Source of the DNA: a virus
UHGV virus genome: UHGV-0271399
Length of the DNA stretch: 36,671 nucleotides
Direction: 5' to 3' (one strand)
This document shows positions 653-32,076 of the stretch, in pieces. A program made the translations under genes and the position numbers. Numbering within the stretch: the stretch's first letter is position 1; the number at the start of each line of letters is the position of its first letter. The notes under the pieces were generated by a model. That model searched no databases, was not told the DNA's origin, and saw nothing but the letters and a program-made list of their open reading frames with translations.

Positions 653-919
653 ATGTTCGTTGAACTGGTTTATGACAAGCGAAATGTAGAGGGGCTCGAA
701 GGGGCCAGAGAAATTATTCTGGCAGAGCTGACGAAACGAGTGCACCAGATCTTCCCTGATGCCGAAGTAAGGGTGAAGCCGATGCAGGCGAACGGCTTGA
801 ATAGCGATGCCAGTAAAAGCGATCGGGAAAAGCTGAACCGCATGCTGGAGGATATGTTTGAAGAGGCCGATATGTGGCTGGTATCTGAGTTCCCGACAGT
901 TCGCCAAGTTGGGCTGTAA
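653..919 (+). CDS. dinI: DinI-like DNA damage-inducible protein
   Basis: 88 aa; small acidic protein with DinI-family hallmarks (AELTKR...FPDAEV...WLVSE); GGAGG RBS; LexA box upstream. Confidence 0.7.
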   Translation: MFVELVYDKRNVEGLEGAREIILAELTKRVHQIFPDAEVRVKPMQANGLNSDASKSDREKLNRMLEDMFEEADMWLVSEFPTVRQVGL

Positions 920-1145: not shown

Positions 1146-2171
1146 ATGAATTCATCAAAAAACAAAATGGATGGCATCACCATATTGCGGTTCTTTGCTG
1201 CATTTTATGTATTTATTTTTCATATCAATATGCGAGCCCCAGTTGACTTTGGTTCTCATTTAAATAAAACCATTTCAAACGGGGCAATAGGAATGAGCAT
1301 ATTCTTTATGCTTTCTGGATTTGTCCTTACATACAATTATTATGATTCTCAGTTGCTTGATTACTTTAAAAAAAGAATAGCAAGAATTTACCCAGCTTAT
1401 TTATGCTGCGGAATTATATCATTCCCATTTCTTTTTACTGACAATTTAACCTCAGGGCAAATTATATCATGCTTAGTCCTATATTTAGTATGTATGCAGG
1501 CATGGATATACCAATCATTCAGCCTGTGGAATTTTGGTGGAACCTGGTCAGTATCAGTTGAGATGTTTTTTTATTCTTTATTCCCTTATATACTAAAGAT
1601 AATAAATAAAGACAACTTGATTTTCATAACACTTTTTGCATACGGTTTTTCTGCTGTGCTTGTTCCAATTTCTCTGATTATTGGTGGGCCAACCGTGGGT
1701 TCCGTTTACTACGCCACTCCGATTTTTAGGCTTCCTGAATTTATTGTCGGAATATGTGCAGCCATGTATTTCATAAATGGGAAAAGAATAAATAATATTA
1801 CTTTTTATATTTCTGTGACTATGTTTTTTTATGCTACCACACTATCCGATGTTAACATGGATACAAACTACTTAATAATACCAACACTTGCATTAATTAT
1901 ATGTTATTTGGGAAACCTAGAAATAACCAAAAACATATTAACATCTTGCCTTATTTATTTGGGTGACATCAGCTATTCATTTTATTTGATGCAGCTGCCA
2001 TTGCTAATGTATCTGGACAGAAATCCAGATACATTCTTAAGAACTCACGGTATTGCTAGTTGGATACTTGTCTTTTTGTTAAATCTTGCAATGGCTATGT
2101 TGTGTTGGCATTTCATAGAGAAAAATTCGATATTGAGGTCCTTATTTTTAAGAAAGGAAGCACGAGCCTAA
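1146..2171 (+). CDS. Acyltransferase family 3 integral membrane protein (O-antigen O-acetyltransferase-like lysogenic conversion gene)
   Basis: 341 aa, multi-TM, N-terminal ILRFFAAF...FH and FFMLSGF motifs typical of acyltransferase_3; strongly AT-rich; sits next to tail fibre/Tfa genes on the opposite strand. Confidence 0.7.
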   Translation: MNSSKNKMDGITILRFFAAFYVFIFHINMRAPVDFGSHLNKTISNGAIGMSIFFMLSGFVLTYNYYDSQLLDYFKKRIARIYPAYLCCGIISFPFLFTDNLTSGQIISCLVLYLVCMQAWIYQSFSLWNFGGTWSVSVEMFFYSLFPYILKIINKDNLIFITLFAYGFSAVLVPISLIIGGPTVGSVYYATPIFRLPEFIVGICAAMYFINGKRINNITFYISVTMFFYATTLSDVNMDTNYLIIPTLALIICYLGNLEITKNILTSCLIYLGDISYSFYLMQLPLLMYLDRNPDTFLRTHGIASWILVFLLNLAMAMLCWHFIEKNSILRSLFLRKEARA

Positions 2172-5594: not shown

Positions 5595-6346
5595 CAGTTT
5601 ACCCCATCGGTATTGCTTCCACCGCGCTGAACACCGCCATGAGTGTGCGTATCATCGATTGGCTTGCCGTTAGCCTTAACGCTCCCCAAGAACTCAACAG
5701 CACCAGTGATTTTTGAAGCCACACCAGAAACAACAGACCCCACCATGCCCCCCATCCAGGTTAACAGGCCATGAATGGTTACTTTCTCAGAAAAATCAGC
5801 CAGAGGGGCAACCACATCAAGACCACCCGGGGCGACAATTTTAATTTTCCGGGTATCAGGATTAAGCTCAAAATAGGTGCTGCCGTCGTCACTACGCAAC
5901 TGTGTGACACTGGTATTAATACCGCTAATCTTCCTCGCCTGCGACTGGGGACCGACAATACAAAATGCATCCGATAAATCATGCATTCTGTCATCGACCG
6001 GCTCCTGTATCCCACCGCTCTGCCACCAGAAATCAATACAACGATCGGCAAAAACGACAAGACACTCATCCCCGGCTTTAACCGGAAAAGTCAACGTACA
6101 GCCTCCGCCGCGCGGAAATACCACTGGCACATCCACCAGCAACGGGTAATTTTTGGTAATGCGGTTACCGTCGTTATCCTTTTCAACCGAACGGATAGCT
6201 GGCTGCACAACCGCCGTCACCGCGTCGGGATCGAATGACTGAACAATGCCAGGCAAGGCGACACGGATCTGGTTCTTTGTTGTTTCCCGTTCAGATTTGA
6301 ATGTTTCGGCAAGGTCGCCGCTGCGGGTCTGGTCAGATACTGCCAT
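5594..6346 (-). CDS. Baseplate assembly protein V-like / central spike
   Basis: 250 aa; N-terminal OB-fold-like region (IRVALPGIVQSFDP...VPVVFP) resembling gpV/Mu gp45. Confidence 0.5.
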   Translation of the reverse strand: MAVSDQTRSGDLAETFKSERETTKNQIRVALPGIVQSFDPDAVTAVVQPAIRSVEKDNDGNRITKNYPLLVDVPVVFPRGGGCTLTFPVKAGDECLVVFADRCIDFWWQSGGIQEPVDDRMHDLSDAFCIVGPQSQARKISGINTSVTQLRSDDGSTYFELNPDTRKIKIVAPGGLDVVAPLADFSEKVTIHGLLTWMGGMVGSVVSGVASKITGAVEFLGSVKANGKPIDDTHTHGGVQRGGSNTDGVN

Positions 6347-6698: not shown

Positions 6699-7040
6699 TT
6701 AATCAACAATCTTTTTGCATGGAAAGGAACCGATGATTTTCGGCGCATCCATGCTGTTCTGCAGCAGTTGGACATTAAGGAATCGCGTTTCGGTACCAGG
6801 GCGACGAATGTATTCAAAGCCGTAGTTGTTACCGTCTTTGGCAGGCATAAGCCCCATGTCTACTTTCAAACCATTGGTACCCAGTTCGGTGATTTTTTGA
6901 GAGGTAACTCTTTCACCGTTGATTGTCGATAACTCGCCCTGGTTTGCAACCATAGTGTAGCCACCGCATTTAACCGTGAAGCCATCCGCCCACGCGCTGC
7001 ACGCAGAAAAGACAGCTAACAGAAAAATAATACCCCTCAT
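6699..7040 (-). CDS. Secreted protein with signal peptide (moron, unknown function)
   Basis: 113 aa; N-terminal MRGIIFLLAVFSACSAWA signal peptide; AGGGG RBS; inserted between baseplate hub and spike genes. Confidence 0.55.
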   Translation of the reverse strand: MRGIIFLLAVFSACSAWADGFTVKCGGYTMVANQGELSTINGERVTSQKITELGTNGLKVDMGLMPAKDGNNYGFEYIRRPGTETRFLNVQLLQNSMDAPKIIGSFPCKKIVD

Positions 7041-7043
7041 TGC

Positions 7044-8105
7044 TCATCCCCTTTGCAAAGCCGATTGCGTATACAGATCCGCCGCGCCACGCGCTTCGCA
7101 CATCATATCCATGTACCACGCCTGGCCCCTTGTATCGCCAGTGTACATAATCCCGCGCACAATATAAACGCCATCCGTTGCGATGCTGGCAGGCTGCGAT
7201 GTGGTGCCGCTGAGCGTGATATTTCCGTCCGTGTTCTGGTCGGTGATCTGCCCGCCGGCCATCGCGATATGGTTGTTCGACAGCGCGGTGCGGAATACTG
7301 AAGCCTGATCCAGCTTAATGAGCCCGTTAACCCGGATGTTCGGGTTAATCAGCGCGCGGACGTTTACGCCGTTGCCGATAGTCTTCTGTGGCATACCGAT
7401 AAGCCCCGTGGCACTGTTGAGCACAATCGCGTCGTGAACATATTCGTTATTCGCCACCATCTGGCGCTGACCATCCACGAACTGCCATGTTGCGCCACAT
7501 TGTCCGGCCACGTTATCCATAAGATGACGTGTCATGCCGAATAGCACCCGGCCCCGGGGGAAAACGGTAGCAGGCATTTCAGGCGTCAGACCTTCAGTCG
7601 CGCCTTTGGCCTCGAAGTCTTTCATCAGCGCGCGATTCACGTCTGCGACCGTATAACCGGCCGCCAGCGTCTGCGAAGTTATGCTGGTGGCAAAAGCCAG
7701 ATCCGTATCGGCAGCCTGAATCAGAACGTAAGAATCAATGGGGCTGTCTTTTCCTGTTACCGAGTAACGAATTTCGCCGCTGAAAATCATCCCATAGTTG
7801 CGGCCATCACTCTGGCCCACATCCGCCGCGTCGACTTCCCGCACGGTCCCGACGTCGCTGGCCGATACCTCCGGCGCGATACCGTCGTAACCCGCAATCA
7901 GACGCACTTTCGAAAACTCCTGCCCGGTGATTCGGTTCACAGTATCTGCCGAGAGGTTATAAATTTTGATAGTCCCTACCCGGGACGCACTGCTGATGTT
8001 GAACCAGTCGATCGTAAAGGTGACTTTAAAATCACTTAGCTCAATTCCCTGACCGTTCCCGTCCACAAGCTGCAGCTCGAAATGTCTCATCCAGTTCTGT
8101 GACAT
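7044..8105 (-). CDS. Baseplate hub protein (late control D / XkdQ-like)
   Basis: 353 aa; position after tape measure and small tail proteins. Confidence 0.5.
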   Translation of the reverse strand: MSQNWMRHFELQLVDGNGQGIELSDFKVTFTIDWFNISSASRVGTIKIYNLSADTVNRITGQEFSKVRLIAGYDGIAPEVSASDVGTVREVDAADVGQSDGRNYGMIFSGEIRYSVTGKDSPIDSYVLIQAADTDLAFATSITSQTLAAGYTVADVNRALMKDFEAKGATEGLTPEMPATVFPRGRVLFGMTRHLMDNVAGQCGATWQFVDGQRQMVANNEYVHDAIVLNSATGLIGMPQKTIGNGVNVRALINPNIRVNGLIKLDQASVFRTALSNNHIAMAGGQITDQNTDGNITLSGTTSQPASIATDGVYIVRGIMYTGDTRGQAWYMDMMCEARGAADLYTQSALQRG

Positions 8106-18790: not shown

Positions 18791-20108
18791 TCTCGATGTC
18801 CTCGTCGGTAATGGATGCCCCGATGCCGGTTACGTCAGAATTTTCGCGCAAATCAGTCATAGCGGCTTTCAGTGTCATCAGACCATCACCCAGCGCCGTA
18901 CTGATTGCGTTGGTAGTGTTTAACGCCACCGTTGAGCGATCGACATCAGACATTTGCCAGAGCGGGTTAAACTCAAACGTGAAATCGTCCGGCAGCGGCT
19001 TGCCAAGCTCCGAACGATGCATGATGTCCAGTATCCGCCGCACCGGAAGACGTAAACGCCTCTCCTGTAACGAGCTTACCCGGTCGTAATAGTTGGCAAG
19101 GTCTGCATCACCGGTAGAAAATCCTTTCGGGGACTGTCCGAACAACCTCACCAGTGGGATACCAACAGCGCCACTAATCTGTTCTGCAAACTGCGAAAGG
19201 ATGTCATCCAGACCACTGAAGCTGTACTGATGGGTTTCAAACTTATCCCGCGAGTCCATGAGCGTCATGCCTTCATTACTCTGGAACTGTCGAATCAGGT
19301 CGATATTCTTCAGCAACGCTTCATACGCAGGACCACCAAGTGCGATAAGCTCACGTAGCTTCTCCACGCTGTAGGTACGCAGATGCGCCTTGTAGACCAG
19401 CTGCGCCGCGCCGACAGTAGCGCTGTCGAACGCGGTAAGACGATCCCAGATACGCTCTACAACCGACATTCCCCATTCGTTCTCGGTCATCTTCTGCTGA
19501 AATGGCAGCGTGACGCCATCAAAGCGAATCAGGCGGCTGTGATGGATGCGCCAGGCCGGGATGCCCGTTGCAGTGGTCACCACGTCGTAAAACTCAGGTT
19601 TACCCAGGTCCGGCCCCATCTCTTTAATGCGGCGGGTCAGCACCGGGTTAATCATCCAGCGGTCGAGCGGGAGAATGCCCTTAAACTTGCCTTCTCCAAT
19701 GGTTTCGAGCCGCAACGGGGTCATTGGTGCCTGCCCCTCAATCATGATGAAGCCAACCGCGCCGCCGTAGAGACGCGACCATTTCAGCACGTCGTTCAGC
19801 GCATCCCAGATCTGCAACTCATCCAGCTGCGCTTCCAGGGTGCCACGGTCTTTGGCGTCAATCTCCGAAGTGATGCGAATGCCTTTCCGGGTCATATCGT
19901 CCGGGATAGCGTCGACCGCTTCGCCGATGATCCAGGACGAACGATAGGACCATTCCACCAGCATGCGGTTGCGGCTGGTGAAGTTAGCCCGGTAGGTCGA
20001 TGCTGAGTGCTGGTTAGGCGTCTGCATCCCCACGCGGGCGACAAAGTTCTCATAGCCATCAGCGGTGGCCTGTGCCGTTCGCTGAGAGGCTTGCTTGTTT
20101 CGTGCCAT
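18642..20108 (-). CDS. Portal protein
   Basis: 488 aa directly downstream of terminase large subunit (ATGA overlap); acidic C-terminus. Confidence 0.65.
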   Translation of the reverse strand: MARNKQASQRTAQATADGYENFVARVGMQTPNQHSASTYRANFTSRNRMLVEWSYRSSWIIGEAVDAIPDDMTRKGIRITSEIDAKDRGTLEAQLDELQIWDALNDVLKWSRLYGGAVGFIMIEGQAPMTPLRLETIGEGKFKGILPLDRWMINPVLTRRIKEMGPDLGKPEFYDVVTTATGIPAWRIHHSRLIRFDGVTLPFQQKMTENEWGMSVVERIWDRLTAFDSATVGAAQLVYKAHLRTYSVEKLRELIALGGPAYEALLKNIDLIRQFQSNEGMTLMDSRDKFETHQYSFSGLDDILSQFAEQISGAVGIPLVRLFGQSPKGFSTGDADLANYYDRVSSLQERRLRLPVRRILDIMHRSELGKPLPDDFTFEFNPLWQMSDVDRSTVALNTTNAISTALGDGLMTLKAAMTDLRENSDVTGIGASITDEDIENAEDEAPPGIGEPDDEPQEPSGGNPLSNQPTQDSAGGRRHRKWSLRWFK

Positions 20109-21730
20109 CAGGCCTGTCTCCCTAGCAGCTCCCAGATGTTCAGGGCTGAATTCATTGGCGCGTAGCTGATCATCACCGAGTCGGCGAGGTTCGGCGACTT
20201 GGTGCCGTCAGGCTGTTTATCAACAACGATTTTCCCCACGCCGTTAATGGAGTAGGTCGGCTGCGACAGCTCGATGATGAGTTTGTCTTTGCTCGCCATG
20301 GCGCTGCTGATTGAGATGATTTCGTCCGGGTTGTAGGCCATGCCCTCAACCACGGCACGGTAGGTGTTCTGGAAAAGTTTACGTAACCGCCACCAGCTCT
20401 GGGCTTTGGCGTTAGCGAAGAAGTCCTTGTTCAGACGTGCGGCTTGCCCGTTGTCCCCGCGAACAGCTTCATCATCCGGATCAAATACCGCGCCACTACC
20501 TCGAAACGGTGTGGCGAGTATTGACGGTCGGCGCGCAGCGTTACGCAGTTCGTTGATAGCGCGTGCATCGCCGCGAACGCCAGCGCCCAGCCCGTCCTCA
20601 TCAAAGCGAAACTCTTCGAGGTTGTCCTGTTCGCAAAAACCGAAGACCTTCTCGACGGACTGATAAATGTCGCTGCCCACACCAGACCATTCCCGCACAT
20701 TTTCCAGGAGGAAGCCATGACGGGTGGAAAAGGCATTTTTGTCCCTGCCTTCATCAGCGACATCCATCGCGCCAAGTCGTTTGCCTGTTGGCTGGATACC
20801 CAGTTTGATATGCGCATCAACGGCAGCCTGTACCCATTCGGATGGAATCAGGACGCCTTCCGCTGATGCGCTGTAGTTCAGATCAAGTTCCTGTGCCACC
20901 ACCACCGGATTATCGATTTTCTCGCATTCCCTGCGATACCACTCTTCATCCTTGCGAGGATCATCCCGCCAGTGGAATGTGAATACCGGTATCTTCCCGC
21001 CATGACGCTTCTGAGCGAACGGGTTAGCCATGCCGTTAACTGAACTCAGGTCGATACGGCAACGCGTCGTTTGTGACAACGCCGCATCAATCAGCAGAGG
21101 ACGCTGAAGGAATGCAGCCTCATCAACCAGATAAAGCGTGGTACGGTCACCACGACCAATATTATCGCCAGCCTCGCCTTTGATAACGGCACCAGTTTCA
21201 GGAAACTCAACACGCATATATGGCGCGTGCTTCTTCTCGCTCCACGAACCGCGAAACTCTACAGGTAGTGTTTCCACGAACTTGCGCGCCTTCCAGAACA
21301 ATGCTTTCGGGTCACCGGTGCTATCGACGTATTCCTCTTTACGGGAGCCGAAACCGATAACCATTTCTTTGTTGAAGAGACAAAGCGAGCAGGCCAGTCC
21401 GATCGCGGTCCAACTGAGCCCCATTTCACGGGATTTTTCGGTAATACCATTCTCCCGATTGCCCCAGCGTTCCATAATCCAGTGGATCCACTCCTCCTGC
21501 TTAGGGAAGAGTAAAAACGGAATGGTCACCGGCAGGCCATAATCAATATTACGCGGGTCCGTTGTCATGCCCCAGTCGATGATGAACTGAGCCGGATTGG
21601 TTCGGTAAAACTGTTTTAGTGCAGGCAATATTTCAGGATTCTGGCGAATGCGCTGTAGGCGTTCCATCCGCCATTCAAAAACCATCTGGTAATCAGGATG
21701 TTTAAAATCGAAGGGGAATGGTAACGGCAT
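20108..21730 (-). CDS. Terminase large subunit
   Basis: 540 aa; position after terminase small subunit; ATPase/nuclease-size protein. Confidence 0.8.
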
Positions 21731-21732
21731 AC

Positions 21733-22284
21733 TTAGCCCATCATTTTTCTATACGCCTCTGCAGCCTGCTCCGGCGTTAAGTTGGTAATTTCTGTTCTGA
21801 CTGGTCCTCCATCAGCGCCAGTCACTTCATTTTTGACGTTGTCTTTAAACGCCTGAACAGAAACATGGCGCCCAAGTAACTCAAGGTTTTTAACCTTATC
21901 AGGCCATTTGATTTTCTTCAGAAGTGCGGCGCTATCTGCGGATACCATCTCCACGACATCCATTCCTGATAGCGTTGTGCGCCATACCTTAGGCCAGTCT
22001 TTAATGGGTTTTAGCTCACCGTTTTGCAGGAGAATGTCGAGCACATCCATCTGGTCGATTTCAAGAAGGCGATTAAGTACATATTCTGCATTAATACCAA
22101 CAAGATCATTGCGTTGCGCTTTCAGTTCGGCGATTCTTAACTTGATGTCAGGTTTTGACAAGTTTTCGGATGCGGTACGGTTAGCTGTCTTTGCGCTGTA
22201 CCCCGCCCGAATAGCCGCTTGCGTGGCGTTTAAATCGATGAGGTACTCGTGACAGAACATTTCTTGCTTGTCAGTAAGTGCCAT
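21733..22284 (-). CDS. Terminase small subunit
   Basis: 183 aa; N-terminal [31 protein letters not shown] motif typical of TerS. Confidence 0.8.
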
Positions 22285-22305
22285 GTTTTATCTCTGGAGA
22301 TTTTC

Positions 22306-22551
22306 GTGAGAAAATTAATCGTATTTGTATCTTTTTGTTCGGCTTTAGGCTTTGGCTATCAAGCCATAACCAGTCAAACATTATCCACAGCGCTAGCAGC
22401 ATTAGCGAGTTTGGTCGTTTTTCTAACAGCCTTAGCAAATCTAAAAAGCAACAAAGCTAAAGAGCAAGGTGTTAGCCAAACAATCGGCGATAACTCTAGC
22501 GGTATACAAATTGGTGGCAACATAACTATTAATGAAAGGGACAAAGAATGA
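22306..22551 (+). CDS. Small membrane protein (unknown; first gene of AT-rich cassette)
   Basis: about 81 aa from GTG 22306 with GGAGA RBS 5 nt upstream; two hydrophobic helices; stop overlaps next ATG (ATGA); no in-frame ATG, so start uncertain. Confidence 0.45.
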   Translation: MRKLIVFVSFCSALGFGYQAITSQTLSTALAALASLVVFLTALANLKSNKAKEQGVSQTIGDNSSGIQIGGNITINERDKE

Positions 22552-23453
22552 GCTTATTCGAGAAATCCGGTCAAAGTGTGGGTGATAACTCCTCAGCTAT
22601 ACAAGTTACAGGTGATGCCTACTTTGGCAACACCACTACTGAGGTCATGGCTATTTGCCAGTTAATGGTCAAAAGTGAAATGGCTTCGCTTCGTGAAGAT
22701 GCATTCGCTTTAGTCGACTCACGGGCTCAAGAATTTGGTCACCAAATTGCAGAAAAACTATCTAAAGATGTTGATGAAAAACTAAGAGCAAAACTCGCTG
22801 ATCCCGATATTCAGTACACCCTCAATCAAGCAGTCGTTCAGGTCGCAAGAAAGGGGTTTGATGCAAAATCAGAACTTCTTAAGGAGTTAATAGTTACTAA
22901 AATTGAAAACGATCAAGAAGACCAAAGCATTTTGATCGATCAAGCGTTAGATACAACATCCAGACTGACCACTAATGATATTAAGTTTTTGGCATTTGTA
23001 TATTTTTTACGTTCAATCAATAAGATGATAGGAAGTATAAATATCACAGAACTTGCAGAGAAAAAAAGTACTCATTTTTCACTACCTAACATTTCCTTGG
23101 AAGAAAATTACATGATCCATAGGTCAATGTATGCTGTTTATGAAACAGATTATATAAAATTTCTTGGAGAACATTTCACCCTCAAACGCCTAAATCAGCA
23201 GCTATTAGAAATTAAAGGCGTATTTTTCTCAGATAAAATATATAATATCAATTACTTAGAGTTATTATCAAAAAGAACGGGTTATGACACTCTTACATCT
23301 GATGCATCATTTTATGAAGCATTCCCAGCTACAAAATTAGTTCTCGACTCTTTTGGTATTTCAACCCTTACAGAACTTGACTCACTAGTCATCAATCCAG
23401 TAGGTATAATTATTGCGGAAAATTATCTCAAAGCTCATGGATATATCAGTTAA
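22548..23453 (+). CDS. Hypothetical 301-aa protein (unknown; candidate accessory/defence gene)
   Basis: long uninterrupted ORF, AT-rich, coherent codon usage, AGGG RBS; no recognisable phage structural or regulatory motif. Confidence 0.7.
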   Translation: MSLFEKSGQSVGDNSSAIQVTGDAYFGNTTTEVMAICQLMVKSEMASLREDAFALVDSRAQEFGHQIAEKLSKDVDEKLRAKLADPDIQYTLNQAVVQVARKGFDAKSELLKELIVTKIENDQEDQSILIDQALDTTSRLTTNDIKFLAFVYFLRSINKMIGSINITELAEKKSTHFSLPNISLEENYMIHRSMYAVYETDYIKFLGEHFTLKRLNQQLLEIKGVFFSDKIYNINYLELLSKRTGYDTLTSDASFYEAFPATKLVLDSFGISTLTELDSLVINPVGIIIAENYLKAHGYIS

Positions 23454-23631
23454 TACTCAGCATATGTAAAAAGGCTCATGGATGCCAGTTGCCAGAGTCG
23501 GGAAAGATAATTGGCGGACATTACCTAGGCTCGCCATCGTTAGCCATAGGTTACTCCGTCGTTTGCTCTGTCTGTCCTGCCGCTACTGGCGTGAACTGCA
23601 CGCGCTTCGCATCACCAGGAGCAAAGTACAG

Positions 23632-23757
23632 CTACTCGCCTGTCTCGGTCGCCAGCGGCACAAAGCCATTAACCAGCTCATGCTGACGTCGTGACATCTT
23701 GCCAGTGAAGGTTTCGCCTGTTTGGGTGGTTAGCGTGATTTGGTAGATGTCGGACAT
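23632..23757 (-). CDS. Small ORF (41 aa) ending at an in-frame TAG; possible disrupted small gene
   Basis: ATG 23757 with AAGGT RBS; reading frame stays open for 27 more codons after the TAG. Confidence 0.2.
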   Translation of the reverse strand: MSDIYQITLTTQTGETFTGKMSRRQHELVNGFVPLATETGE

Positions 23758-23810: not shown

Positions 23811-24071
23811 ATGTCTTCGTTCAACCAAACAAGCCTACGATCATCCAACAGCCCGCTTCGCATAGAAACAACTGATAAAGAACATGCCATTGCCCATGAG
23901 GCAATTTTGGTTGCCTTATTGACTAACGTTGCAAGGTCTGCGCACAGCAATCAGGCGCTGATTGAATTAGAAGAAACAGTTAAAGGTTTGATTAGCAATT
24001 CCAACCCTAATAGCTTTCGGATCGCTTCAGATCTCATTAATGAAGCAAAAGAGAATTTCAACAGGGGTTGA
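23811..24071 (+). CDS. Hypothetical 86-aa protein
   Basis: strong AGGAGG RBS just upstream of ATG 23811; convergent with rha. Confidence 0.5.
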   Translation: MSSFNQTSLRSSNSPLRIETTDKEHAIAHEAILVALLTNVARSAHSNQALIELEETVKGLISNSNPNSFRIASDLINEAKENFNRG

Positions 24072-30482: not shown

Positions 30483-31180
30483 AGACTTGCTCCTTTCAGT
30501 CCGAACTTAGCTTTAATTTCTGCGATCTTCGCCAGCGCCTGAACACGATTTAGAGGCCTGCCGCCCATGACAGGAAGTTGTTTTACTGGTTCAGGTATCG
30601 TCTCACCACGGTTAATTCGCGCTGTCATACAGGTCAGTTCATCGGCAGCCTTGCGTCGTAATTCCGCGTCAGTCAGCGCATTGGCCCGCATGTTCTGGTA
30701 CAGGTTGGTAACCAGCCAGTAGTGCGCGTTCGATTTCCACGGATAAGACTCTGCATCCGGATACAGGCCACGCTTCCGGCAATACTCGTAAACCATATCA
30801 ACCAGCTCGCTGACGTTTGGCAGTCCGGCGATAACGGATGCTTCTTCCCGGCACCATGCAACAAACTGCCCAGGTGATGGCAGAAATGGTCGATTCTGCC
30901 GACGGGCTACGCGCATTCCTGCGTTAACCTGTTCCATTGTGGTGATCCCGTTTTCCCGGAAAGCCAGAACCCACTGGCGGCGGATTTCGTTCAGTTCGTT
31001 CTGGTCACGGTTAGCCAGGCTCGCCGGGAAAGTTGCCAGTAACTGGCTGAACACACCGTTGATGATCTGCGCTACCTGCTGTACCTGCGGCTTTTCGTCG
31101 TACTGTTCCGGCATGTTGTTGGCGATCCGACGCATCTGCTCACGGTCAAAGTTAACCATCTGTGCGGCGATGTTTTTCAT
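30479..31180 (-). CDS. P: Replication protein P (helicase loader)
   Basis: 233 aa near-identical to lambda P. Confidence 0.9.
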   Translation of the reverse strand: MKNIAAQMVNFDREQMRRIANNMPEQYDEKPQVQQVAQIINGVFSQLLATFPASLANRDQNELNEIRRQWVLAFRENGITTMEQVNAGMRVARRQNRPFLPSPGQFVAWCREEASVIAGLPNVSELVDMVYEYCRKRGLYPDAESYPWKSNAHYWLVTNLYQNMRANALTDAELRRKAADELTCMTARINRGETIPEPVKQLPVMGGRPLNRVQALAKIAEIKAKFGLKGASL

Positions 31181-32076
31181 AGATCCACCCCGTAAATCCA
31201 GTCTGTGTTTGTCAGGTCGAGTTTTGGTTTGCTAGCTGTCACGCCTGCCTGTTGCTTGTTACGGTTGATTTCGAGCTGGGTCCACTTGTCGCGGAGTTTA
31301 GCCGGACTCAGCACGTTACCGGACCAGAAGTTGTCCTGGCATGCCCAGCGGAACAGCACGCACATGTCGCGGTGGTTACGTCCATCACGTTCACGCATCA
31401 GGCGGATATCGTTAGCCCACCCTGCAAAATTCGGTTTTCTGGCTGATGGCGCGATGGTCTTCACCATGTCAAACATCCACTCTGCGGCGGTCAGGTCTTC
31501 TGCTGTCCCCCACTTGCTGCCGCTCTGAATTGCAGCATCCGGTTTCACCACAGAAAGATCGTTTTCTGGCTGGTCAGAGGATTCGCCAGAATTCTCTGAC
31601 GAATAATCTTTTCTTTTTTCTTTTGTATTAGTGTCTTTTGTGTCCCCCTGTTTTGAGGGATAGCAATCCCCCAATTTGAGGGATGTTTTATCCCTCGTTT
31701 TAGGGGATTTTCCCTCGTTTTGAGGGATGCACCATTCTGAGATGTTTTTATTTGGTCCAAACATGCCGCATTGTTGCTTGATAATATTCATTCTGACGAG
31801 TTCTAACTTGGCTTCATTGCACCGTTTGACGGGTAACTTTGTAATCTCGCTAAGTTGAGAATCGGTGATTCTGTCCATTGGTTTATTCCACCCATAGGTT
31901 TTACGCAGAATGGCAAGCAGCACTTTAAACTGTCGCTTGGTCAGATCTGCGCCTGAATAAGCCTCAAGCAGCATATTTGATAGTCTGGCGTAACCATCAT
32001 CGAGATCTGCCACATTACGCTCCTGTTTGGCAAAGTTACCTCTGCAGAAGTTGAGTATTTTTGCTGTATTTGTCAT
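31177..32076 (-). CDS. O: Replication initiator O
   Basis: 299 aa near-identical to lambda O; contains ori iterons. Confidence 0.9.
   Translation of the reverse strand: MTNTAKILNFCRGNFAKQERNVADLDDGYARLSNMLLEAYSGADLTKRQFKVLLAILRKTYGWNKPMDRITDSQLSEITKLPVKRCNEAKLELVRMNIIKQQCGMFGPNKNISEWCIPQNEGKSPKTRDKTSLKLGDCYPSKQGDTKDTNTKEKRKDYSSENSGESSDQPENDLSVVKPDAAIQSGSKWGTAEDLTAAEWMFDMVKTIAPSARKPNFAGWANDIRLMRERDGRNHRDMCVLFRWACQDNFWSGNVLSPAKLRDKWTQLEINRNKQQAGVTASKPKLDLTNTDWIYGVDL
31636..31730. other. ori-lambda: four iterons plus adjacent AT-rich region, inside O
   Basis: repeats of TCCCTCAAAACGAGGGA-type ~18-bp units at 31636-31730, A/T-rich tract at about 31600-31635. Confidence 0.8.

Follow-up and report, generated by a model that had tools for sequence, protein, structure and literature searches.

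In this work, we describe a pair of overlapping genes in the viral genome UHGV-0271399 (36,671 nucleotides, the whole of which is here called the window), which encode a small membrane protein of 81 amino acids and a cytoplasmic protein of 301 amino acids, belonging to the LPO_1073/Vpar_1526 family. The two products share a short peptide motif, placed at the C-terminus of the former and at the N-terminus of the latter, and across the family this motif is matched pair by pair. The reading that best accommodates these data, to which we give about an even chance, is that the locus would function as an abortive-infection or exclusion module, in which the motif of the larger protein, a putative sensor, templates the tail of the membrane protein, a putative effector.

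A sequence-only reading of this stretch had noted a peptide motif duplicated in two open reading frames (ORFs) of different frames, and both peptides are indeed present: the small protein ends with ...SQTIGDNSSGIQIGGNITINERDKE (also given as ...QTIGDNSSGIQIGGNITINERDKE), while the large one starts with MSLFEKSGQSVGDNSSAIQVTGDAYFGN. The two copies, QTIGDNSSGIQIGGNITIN and QSVGDNSSAIQVTGDAYFG, are identical, without gaps, at 9 out of 15 residues; when both proteins were shuffled 300 times, the best 15-mer never reached 9 identities, the maximum being 8, observed in 6 shuffles. Judged by these sequences, the similarity is far beyond chance. The further suggestion, that a recent local tandem duplication of DNA had produced the two copies, did not hold: just 30 of 54 nucleotides are identical, matches fall at 10/15 first, 11/15 second and 7/15 third codon positions, and serines are encoded by TCT/AGC in one copy and by TCC/TCA in the other. 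Since identity resides in the first two codon positions, and the classes of serine codons differ, the similarity appears to be held at the peptide level, rather than being the trace of a recent duplication. The features of the locus are the following.

22285-23480, plus strand: AT-rich two-gene moron, in orientation opposite to the flanking phage genes
22296-22299, plus strand: Shine-Dalgarno-like GGAG, 6 nt before the GTG of the small ORF (read from the sequence)
22306-22551, plus strand: small ORF, 81 amino acids, GTG start (PGAP agrees), small membrane protein, putative effector
22477-22533, plus strand: effector-side motif QTIGDNSSGIQIGGNITIN, with core G-I-Q-I-G, residues 58-76 of the small protein
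22537-22540, plus strand: AGGG, Shine-Dalgarno-like element of the large ORF (read from the sequence)
22548-22551, plus strand: ATGA start/stop overlap of the two ORFs (read from the sequence)
22548-23453, plus strand: large ORF, 301 amino acids, LPO_1073/Vpar_1526 family, cytoplasmic, putative sensor
22572-22628, plus strand: sensor-side motif QSVGDNSSAIQVTGDAYFG, residues 9-27 of the large protein, directly N-terminal to the LPO_1073 domain
23028-23450, plus strand: hypervariable C-terminal half of the 301-residue protein, residues 161-301, candidate specificity/sensing region

Relative to the small ORF, the large one is in frame -1; an ATGA overlap of this kind is an arrangement typical of translational coupling. 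In the small protein, AlphaFold2 predicts two helices (residues 2-23 and 26-52, with a predicted local distance difference test score, pLDDT, of about 90), in agreement with the hydropathy profile; this transmembrane (TM) hairpin is followed by a basic linker, KSNKAKE, and by a tail of roughly 29 residues (53-81), with a pLDDT of about 50 and predicted to be unstructured. According to the positive-inside rule, both termini, and hence the motif-bearing tail, are probably cytoplasmic. The C-terminal motif was found in 27 out of 27 full-length homologues (56-93% identity), where residues Q58, Q68, G70 and G71 do not vary. The small protein matches a single family, PHROG 27656, whose function is unknown: no match was obtained in Pfam, NCBIfam, PADLOC or the PDB, and no known cell-death domain of the Bell/HeLo/Hell type was recognized. 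A version of 53 amino acids, from an E. coli third-party annotation (TPA) assembly (P0090), ends with ...KSNKAKE, corresponding to 22306-22464, and carries no motif tail; it may represent either a natural loss-of-motif allele or an assembly error.

The 301-residue protein passes the NCBIfam model NF045477 with 98.3 bits, against a cut-off of 45, over residues 27-295, the domain thus beginning directly after the motif. Pfam PF28206 is annotated for all its homologues; the search of the protein itself returned no Pfam-A family, LPO_1073_dom as the sole NCBIfam one, and PHROG 19542, of no known function. No fold relatives were found, and the protein resembles neither an NLR (NB-ARC/NACHT plus repeats) nor any other recognized oligomerizing immune sensor. 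Its first 28 residues, with pLDDT below 50, are predicted to be unstructured. When homologues are compared by segments (residues 1-28, 29-160 and 161-301), identity amounts to 93, 77 and 37% for P0014 and to 50, 41 and 20% for P0063: the hypervariability of the C-terminal half would be in line with a role in sensing, subject to diversifying pressure. In V. parvula, the family's namesake Vpar_1526 is among the proteins that mass spectrometry identified in whole-cell, outer-membrane-enriched and surface-exposed fractions (PMC5491611, Table 1), which shows that the family is expressed and that it co-fractionates with membranes, despite the lack of a predicted TM segment in the protein.

Pair-specific conservation of the motif

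An exhaustive profile search (E <= 1e-3) resulted in 1,560 representative clusters (50% identity) of the LPO_1073/Vpar_1526 family; among the 147 representatives listed, the majority have a length of about 280-300 amino acids and the motif at their start. The N-terminal motif is kept in 63 out of 63 homologues of the large protein (32-99% identity), which, together with its conservation in all full-length homologues of the small one, contradicts the idea that the resemblance could be a chance one, absent from homologues. The family-wide sensor consensus is Q-x-V-G-D-[GN]-S-x-A-phi-Q-A-G-G-[DN]-phi-x-phi, and in the motif region G (13.7%), Q (10.6%), N (9%) and S (9%) abound, while P is scarce (0.5%).

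Loci were examined in Leclercia, Serratia, Providencia, viral contigs, and soil, water and human-gut metagenomes. A contig scan with an alignment of close homologues produced 2 loci only; a 60-sequence alignment (A2) turned out to be too diverse for pattern scanning, for which a 7-sequence one (A3) was used instead, and the 30 mostly unnamed matches obtained by a protein search with A2 were used solely for context look-ups. All loci with enough upstream sequence are either split, with a partner of 59-90 amino acids and one or two TM segments encoded upstream, or fused. Junctions of split pairs vary, from the 4-nt overlap of the window to gaps of 1-7 nt or larger overlaps in homologues.

At split loci, the tail of the upstream small protein matches the N-terminus of its own partner. 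Tail and N-terminus read, respectively, SQTFGDNSKGYQAGRDINI and EQSTGDNSNSYQAKRDIII in one pair, DDSIGLQADVIKEVVIN and GGSIALQADHISGLTIN in another, and similarly NSSNVTQVGGNVTIG and KSENVIQVAGNIEV, GNHSMNVQIG and GDQSVNVQID, VNQTFNVSGNHNTVVG and VNTTQNAQLGSHDNKFIG. Different flavours of the motif could be told apart, such as YQA.RDI (L010), SI.LQAD.I (L011 and L049), NVQI (L061), NV.QV.GN (L040, L042, L045 and L054) and VN.T.N..G.H[ND]..[VI]G (L058 and L062). Over 30 pairs, the local-alignment score is 50.6 for cognate and 33.1 for non-cognate combinations, a difference never attained in 20,000 permutations; the same is true (0/20,000) when one pair per flavour is taken, 12 pairs in all, with scores of 52.3 and 32.8 +/- 3.1, respectively, and the cognate partner ranks first for 8 of the 12 representatives. 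The number of independent co-variation events is about 8-12, the number of flavours, and not 30. Around the invariant Q, cognate pairs are more often identical than non-cognate ones at nearly every position between -7 and +3; in this anchored comparison L046 and L048 were mis-anchored and L039 was dropped, errors which can only lower the apparent cognate identity. Since independent drift along a shared tree would not make the two motifs converge on the same residues, this homotypic, pair-specific co-evolution points to selection for sameness. Of the explanations put forward by the sequence-only reading, that of a shared interaction motif is thus the one borne out, the two copies co-varying within gene pairs across very divergent lineages, and we regard a physical contact between the two motifs as highly probable.

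The two sides are alike, but not equivalent. Across pairs (L004-L077), the effector almost always features G-phi-Q-phi-G-G and the sensor A-phi-Q-phi-x-G, with A at -2, where the effector has G, and a variable +2 (in the window, 22495-22500 versus 22596-22601). Such asymmetry may mean that one copy nucleates and the other is templated.

In fused loci, the motif is found between an N-terminal module and the LPO_1073 domain. P0201 and L041 are single chains, in which one TM helix, bearing the EW[VI]FSG[VI]G signature of the one-TM partners, is followed by the motif and by the domain, while P0219 features two TM helices, a KKAKE linker, two copies of the motif and then the domain. In P0200, P0233 and L055 the place of the helices is taken by an HNH-like domain, whose match to HNH_2 (E 9.7e-4) is just under the cut-off of that family. 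In all fusions examined, the motif is immediately followed by the NF045477 domain. Because of these architectures, the N-terminal module, either TM or nuclease-like, appears interchangeable and separable, the LPO_1073 domain being constant: by its sequence relationships, the module behaves as a swappable effector. The fusions also bear on the notion of a split or re-fused gene, which is correct in evolutionary terms, as P0201, L041 and P0219 exemplify, but not in the sense of a lesion, the split being a conserved functional state.

The core of the motif resembles that of the receptor-interacting protein homotypic interaction motif (RHIM). G-phi-Q-phi-G is the core common to RHIM, fungal PP and bacterial BASS3 motifs (Dyrka et al. 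2020, 10.1101/2020.01.06.895854), and the small protein conforms to it, with GIQIG, as do its homologues, with GVQVG or GIQVG. A profile of 19 tails, searched against 177,635 distinct PDB sequences, gave 6 matches at E <= 10, 5 of which are RIPK1 RHIM cores (E 0.086-1.4); in the best one, 8ib0_A (E 0.086), NSSGIQIG is identical, and the RIPK1 sequence was confirmed against the PDB. RIPK1 was recovered solely by the profile of aligned tails, as no match to the PDB was obtained by phmmer with a single tail. Similarly, RHIM (PF12721) is the only Pfam family matched by the tail profile (E 0.14, 12.2 bits, below the cut-off of 20). On these alignments, the matches are specific, yet sub-threshold, and speak for likeness, not for homology.

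Genomic setting and defence context

The window corresponds to a lambdoid E. coli prophage, and a near-identical prophage is found in E. coli strain Rb-23. The gene pair forms a moron with a GC content of 31-42%, versus about 45-57% in the flanks. On one side of it lies the small terminase gene (21733-22284, minus strand), on the other the Rha/lysis genes, and its transcription runs against that of the holin, lysozyme and Rz genes. The pair occupies the same position in unrelated Leclercia and Providencia prophages, again between terminase and lysis genes and on the opposite strand. The locus was found in 13 of 5,426 complete E. coli genomes, and the split is identical in all 13. In 50,697 deposited phage genomes, tblastn detected no match to the locus, and megablast produced a match at the terminase edge only.

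Outside prophages, some pairs lie close to defence genes. In L077, a human-associated metagenome contig, the pair directly follows a type I restriction-modification (R-M) operon with SLFN_AlbA_2. Directly downstream of this pair (6850-7962) lies a second LPO_1073 paralogue of 370 amino acids, with its own N-terminal motif TAGDNAQQIQGQNVTIINQIG, followed by a PIN7 protein; two sensors may here share one effector. In L074, the pair is near HigB and SLATT_5. Location in prophage moron slots and in defence islands supports, by genomic association, a role in defence. In the Leclercia adecarboxylata prophage L004, an opposite-strand gene beside the pair (6004-6342) has a weak Pfam match to Acb2/Tad1-hairpin; if the match is real, a candidate anti-defence sponge gene would stand beside a candidate defence moron.

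Other genes of the window deserve mention. About 360 nt downstream of the pair lies an ORF of 86 amino acids and unknown function (23811-24071, plus strand), and between the two an ORF interrupted by a stop, which carries a pseudogene annotation (23551-23757, minus strand); neither is conserved beside the pair in the other loci examined. The large terminase, 540 amino acids long (20108-21730, minus strand), adjoins the small terminase gene and is labelled in RefSeq as "hypothetical protein" only. The replication (O-like) gene (31177-32076, minus strand) is an intact ORF of 299 amino acids in the window; it is annotated as frameshifted in the Rb-23 prophage, the register between the two sequences being lost at about 31.7 kb. 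At the tail-fibre end of the prophage lie a DinI-family gene (653-919, plus strand) and an acyltransferase-family gene of 341 amino acids (1146-2171, plus strand), which are probably further lysogenic-conversion morons, involved, for example, in O-antigen modification.

Proposed mechanism and alternative explanations

The locus shares the traits of known amyloid-signalling pairs, among them Bell/NLR, Bab/Agp and HET-S/NWD2: the genes are adjacent and co-oriented, the motif is placed at the C-terminus of the effector and at the N-terminus of the receptor, the motifs are homotypic, more alike within pairs than between them, and each is short, G/N/Q/S-rich, proline-poor and predicted to be unstructured in the monomer. 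In the mechanism we propose, the sensor would perceive a phage-derived cue through its hypervariable C-terminal half and then self-associate; the N-terminal motifs, gathered in this way, would form an in-register cross-beta nucleus of the RHIM-like type, able to recruit and template the matching tails of the membrane protein. Once clustered, the TM hairpins would injure the inner membrane, leading to death or arrest of the infected cell before completion of the phage cycle, with abortive infection or superinfection exclusion benefiting the prophage. We infer that the contact between the motifs is amyloid-like (cross-beta), conditional and lethal; the direction of signalling, the damage to the membrane and the anti-phage role are likewise parts of the proposal. 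More tentatively, and with somewhat less than even confidence, LPO_1073/Vpar_1526 proteins and their TM partners might constitute a previously unrecognized class of amyloid-signalling abortive-infection systems, comprising at least 1,500 clusters at 50% identity. This class, to the same tentative degree, would be found in unicellular bacteria, prophages and the gut microbiome, and would rely on a RHIM-like motif to couple a new sensor to a TM-hairpin or HNH effector.

Several observations weigh against this mechanism. The promoter scan revealed no convincing plus-strand promoter upstream of 22306, and the terminator scan none after 23453. The sensor-side core deviates from G-phi-Q-phi-G, being AIQVTG in the window and A-phi-Q-A-G-G family-wide; the sub-threshold RHIM matches rest on a core of 8-10 residues, whose likeness is possibly due to convergence. 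The sensor features no NTPase or repeat domain which could explain induced oligomerization. PADLOC-DB v2.0.0 returned no family for either protein at E <= 1, the context of L076 is metabolic and not defence-related, and literature searches with the family names, the motif strings, and RHIM or amyloid in combination with antiphage or prophage retrieved no description of the system. Finally, the motif is kept in fusions, where templating in trans would be needless, and may thus serve generic self-assembly or tethering.

This last point leads to the main alternative, a constitutive tether, which we consider unlikely, though it is the strongest of the competing accounts. Here, a stable, non-amyloid beta-sheet joint would anchor the LPO_1073 protein to its membrane partner, split and fused forms being equivalent versions of one membrane-bound machine, which might, for instance, exclude superinfecting phages or block injection, and no templating step would be involved. 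The fusions fit it well, as they keep the motif between TM helix and domain (P0201 and L041), or both copies of it (P0219), and so do the presence of Vpar_1526 in membrane-enriched fractions of V. parvula (PMC5491611) and the ATGA overlap, which suggests stoichiometric co-production. Stable heteromeric interfaces, however, are normally complementary, while partners here have repeatedly come to share the same residues, the pattern that in-register stacking would produce; moreover, both motif regions are predicted to be disordered, and the HNH-like fusions indicate that the N-terminal module is an effector, not merely an anchor. Less probable still is a device of the toxin/antitoxin or holin/antiholin kind, in which the LPO_1073 protein would restrain, via the motif, a toxic membrane peptide, whose release would kill the cell or tune lysis. 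The small protein has a match to the holin family phrog_565, although a weak one (E 0.059), insufficient to class it as a phage holin; the locus adjoins the lysis cassette, HigB is a neighbour in L074, and a tight operon of two overlapping ORFs is typical of toxin-antitoxin modules. The pair, on the other hand, is transcribed opposite to the lysis genes and also occurs outside prophages, beside R-M systems and in metabolic regions; the HNH fusions are unlike the logic of holins, and chains combining toxin and antitoxin in a single polypeptide (P0201 and P0219) are hard to reconcile with neutralization by release.

It had also been suggested that a frameshift might normally join the membrane anchor to the soluble domain. 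The ORFs do overlap in different frames, and single-chain homologues with TM helices and domain exist, but a gene lesion, a sequencing error or a programmed -1 frameshift is very improbable, and may be regarded as effectively excluded. The split, besides being identical in the 13 complete E. coli genomes, is conserved in divergent lineages with varying junction geometry, each ORF has its own start codon and Shine-Dalgarno-like element, the stops TAA TGA occur in the frame of the large ORF 4 codons upstream of its ATG, and the 12-nt interval open to a shift contains no X XXY YYZ slippery heptamer. The least credible explanation is a chance or low-complexity similarity devoid of function. Shortness of the motif, together with its high content of G, N, S and Q, speaks for such a chance origin, but none of the 300 shuffles reached the observed identity, and conservation within the family, along with a pair-specific co-variation unmatched in any permutation, refutes it.

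Comparison with known systems

The two-gene layout, a cytoplasmic sensor and a small inner-membrane protein encoded by a prophage, recalls RexA/RexB of lambda, where a cytoplasmic sensor of roughly 280-300 amino acids acts with a small inner-membrane protein, thought to depolarize the superinfected cell. No similarity of sequence or fold between the pair and RexA/RexB was detected, nor are the Rex proteins known to have a terminal motif in common.

HET-S/NWD2 of Podospora anserina resembles the pair in the adjacency of the genes, the matching terminal motif, the membrane-acting effector and the occurrence of fused, "all-in-one" forms beside split ones. NWD2, however, is a NACHT-WD NLR, HET-S has a HeLo pore-forming domain, and the HET-s motif is a double repeat of 21 residues, folding into a beta-solenoid; no homology to the proteins described here was detected.

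A likeness is also found with BASS3, PP and RHIM motifs, which have similar N/S/G-rich flanks, the same placement at the C-terminus of the effector and at the N-terminus of the receptor, and overlapping genes; in the Bell/NLR pair of Saccharothrix, the adjacent genes overlap by 4 bp, as in the window. The sensor-side consensus is here A-phi-Q-A-G-G-[DN], and the partners are not Bell/NLR proteins or kinases. Hosts differ as well: BASS motifs have been reported as restricted to multicellular Actinobacteria and Cyanobacteria, where they are paired with NLRs (Dyrka et al. 2020, 10.1101/2020.01.06.895854), while the pairs described here belong to unicellular enterobacteria, gut bacteria and their prophages.

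In the literature accessed, the sole bacterial amyloid-signalling defence system shown experimentally is Bab/Agp (BASS11) of E. coli ECOR25 (10.1101/2024.11.07.622273). It too consists of two adjacent genes in an E. coli prophage or defence hotspot, with a motif of roughly 20 residues at the C-terminus of a small membrane-targeting effector and at the N-terminus of a larger, cytoplasmic, non-NLR sensor; the logic proposed here is also the same, a sensor templating an effector, followed by membrane damage and abortive infection. The effectors are different, Bab being a soluble, helical Bell-like domain of 109 amino acids, with one N-terminal hydrophobic helix, and the effector here a bare protein of 59-90 amino acids with one or two TM segments. 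The motifs also appear distinct, RHIM-like IQ[IV]GG here and BASS11 there.

Signalling of the amyloid type between products of adjacent genes is thus already known; what is new is the sensor family, the minimal TM effector, the variant of the motif and the range of hosts (unicellular enteric and gut bacteria, in large numbers). If our reading is correct, RHIM-type signalling would extend from animal necroptosis and filamentous bacteria to phage defence in E. coli, which would suggest that the RHIM core either arose in prokaryotes or phages or emerged repeatedly by convergence. The locus suggests that the same principle of signalling operates in a far commoner module, much smaller in size (about 1.2 kb), which, in E. 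coli prophages and gut bacteria, would combine a new sensor fold with the simplest effector conceivable. It offers a testable function for an uncharacterized family, named from locus tags, and a compact, genetically tractable system for the transmission of a signal by a 20-residue motif, whose natural flavours could provide ready-made specificity swaps.

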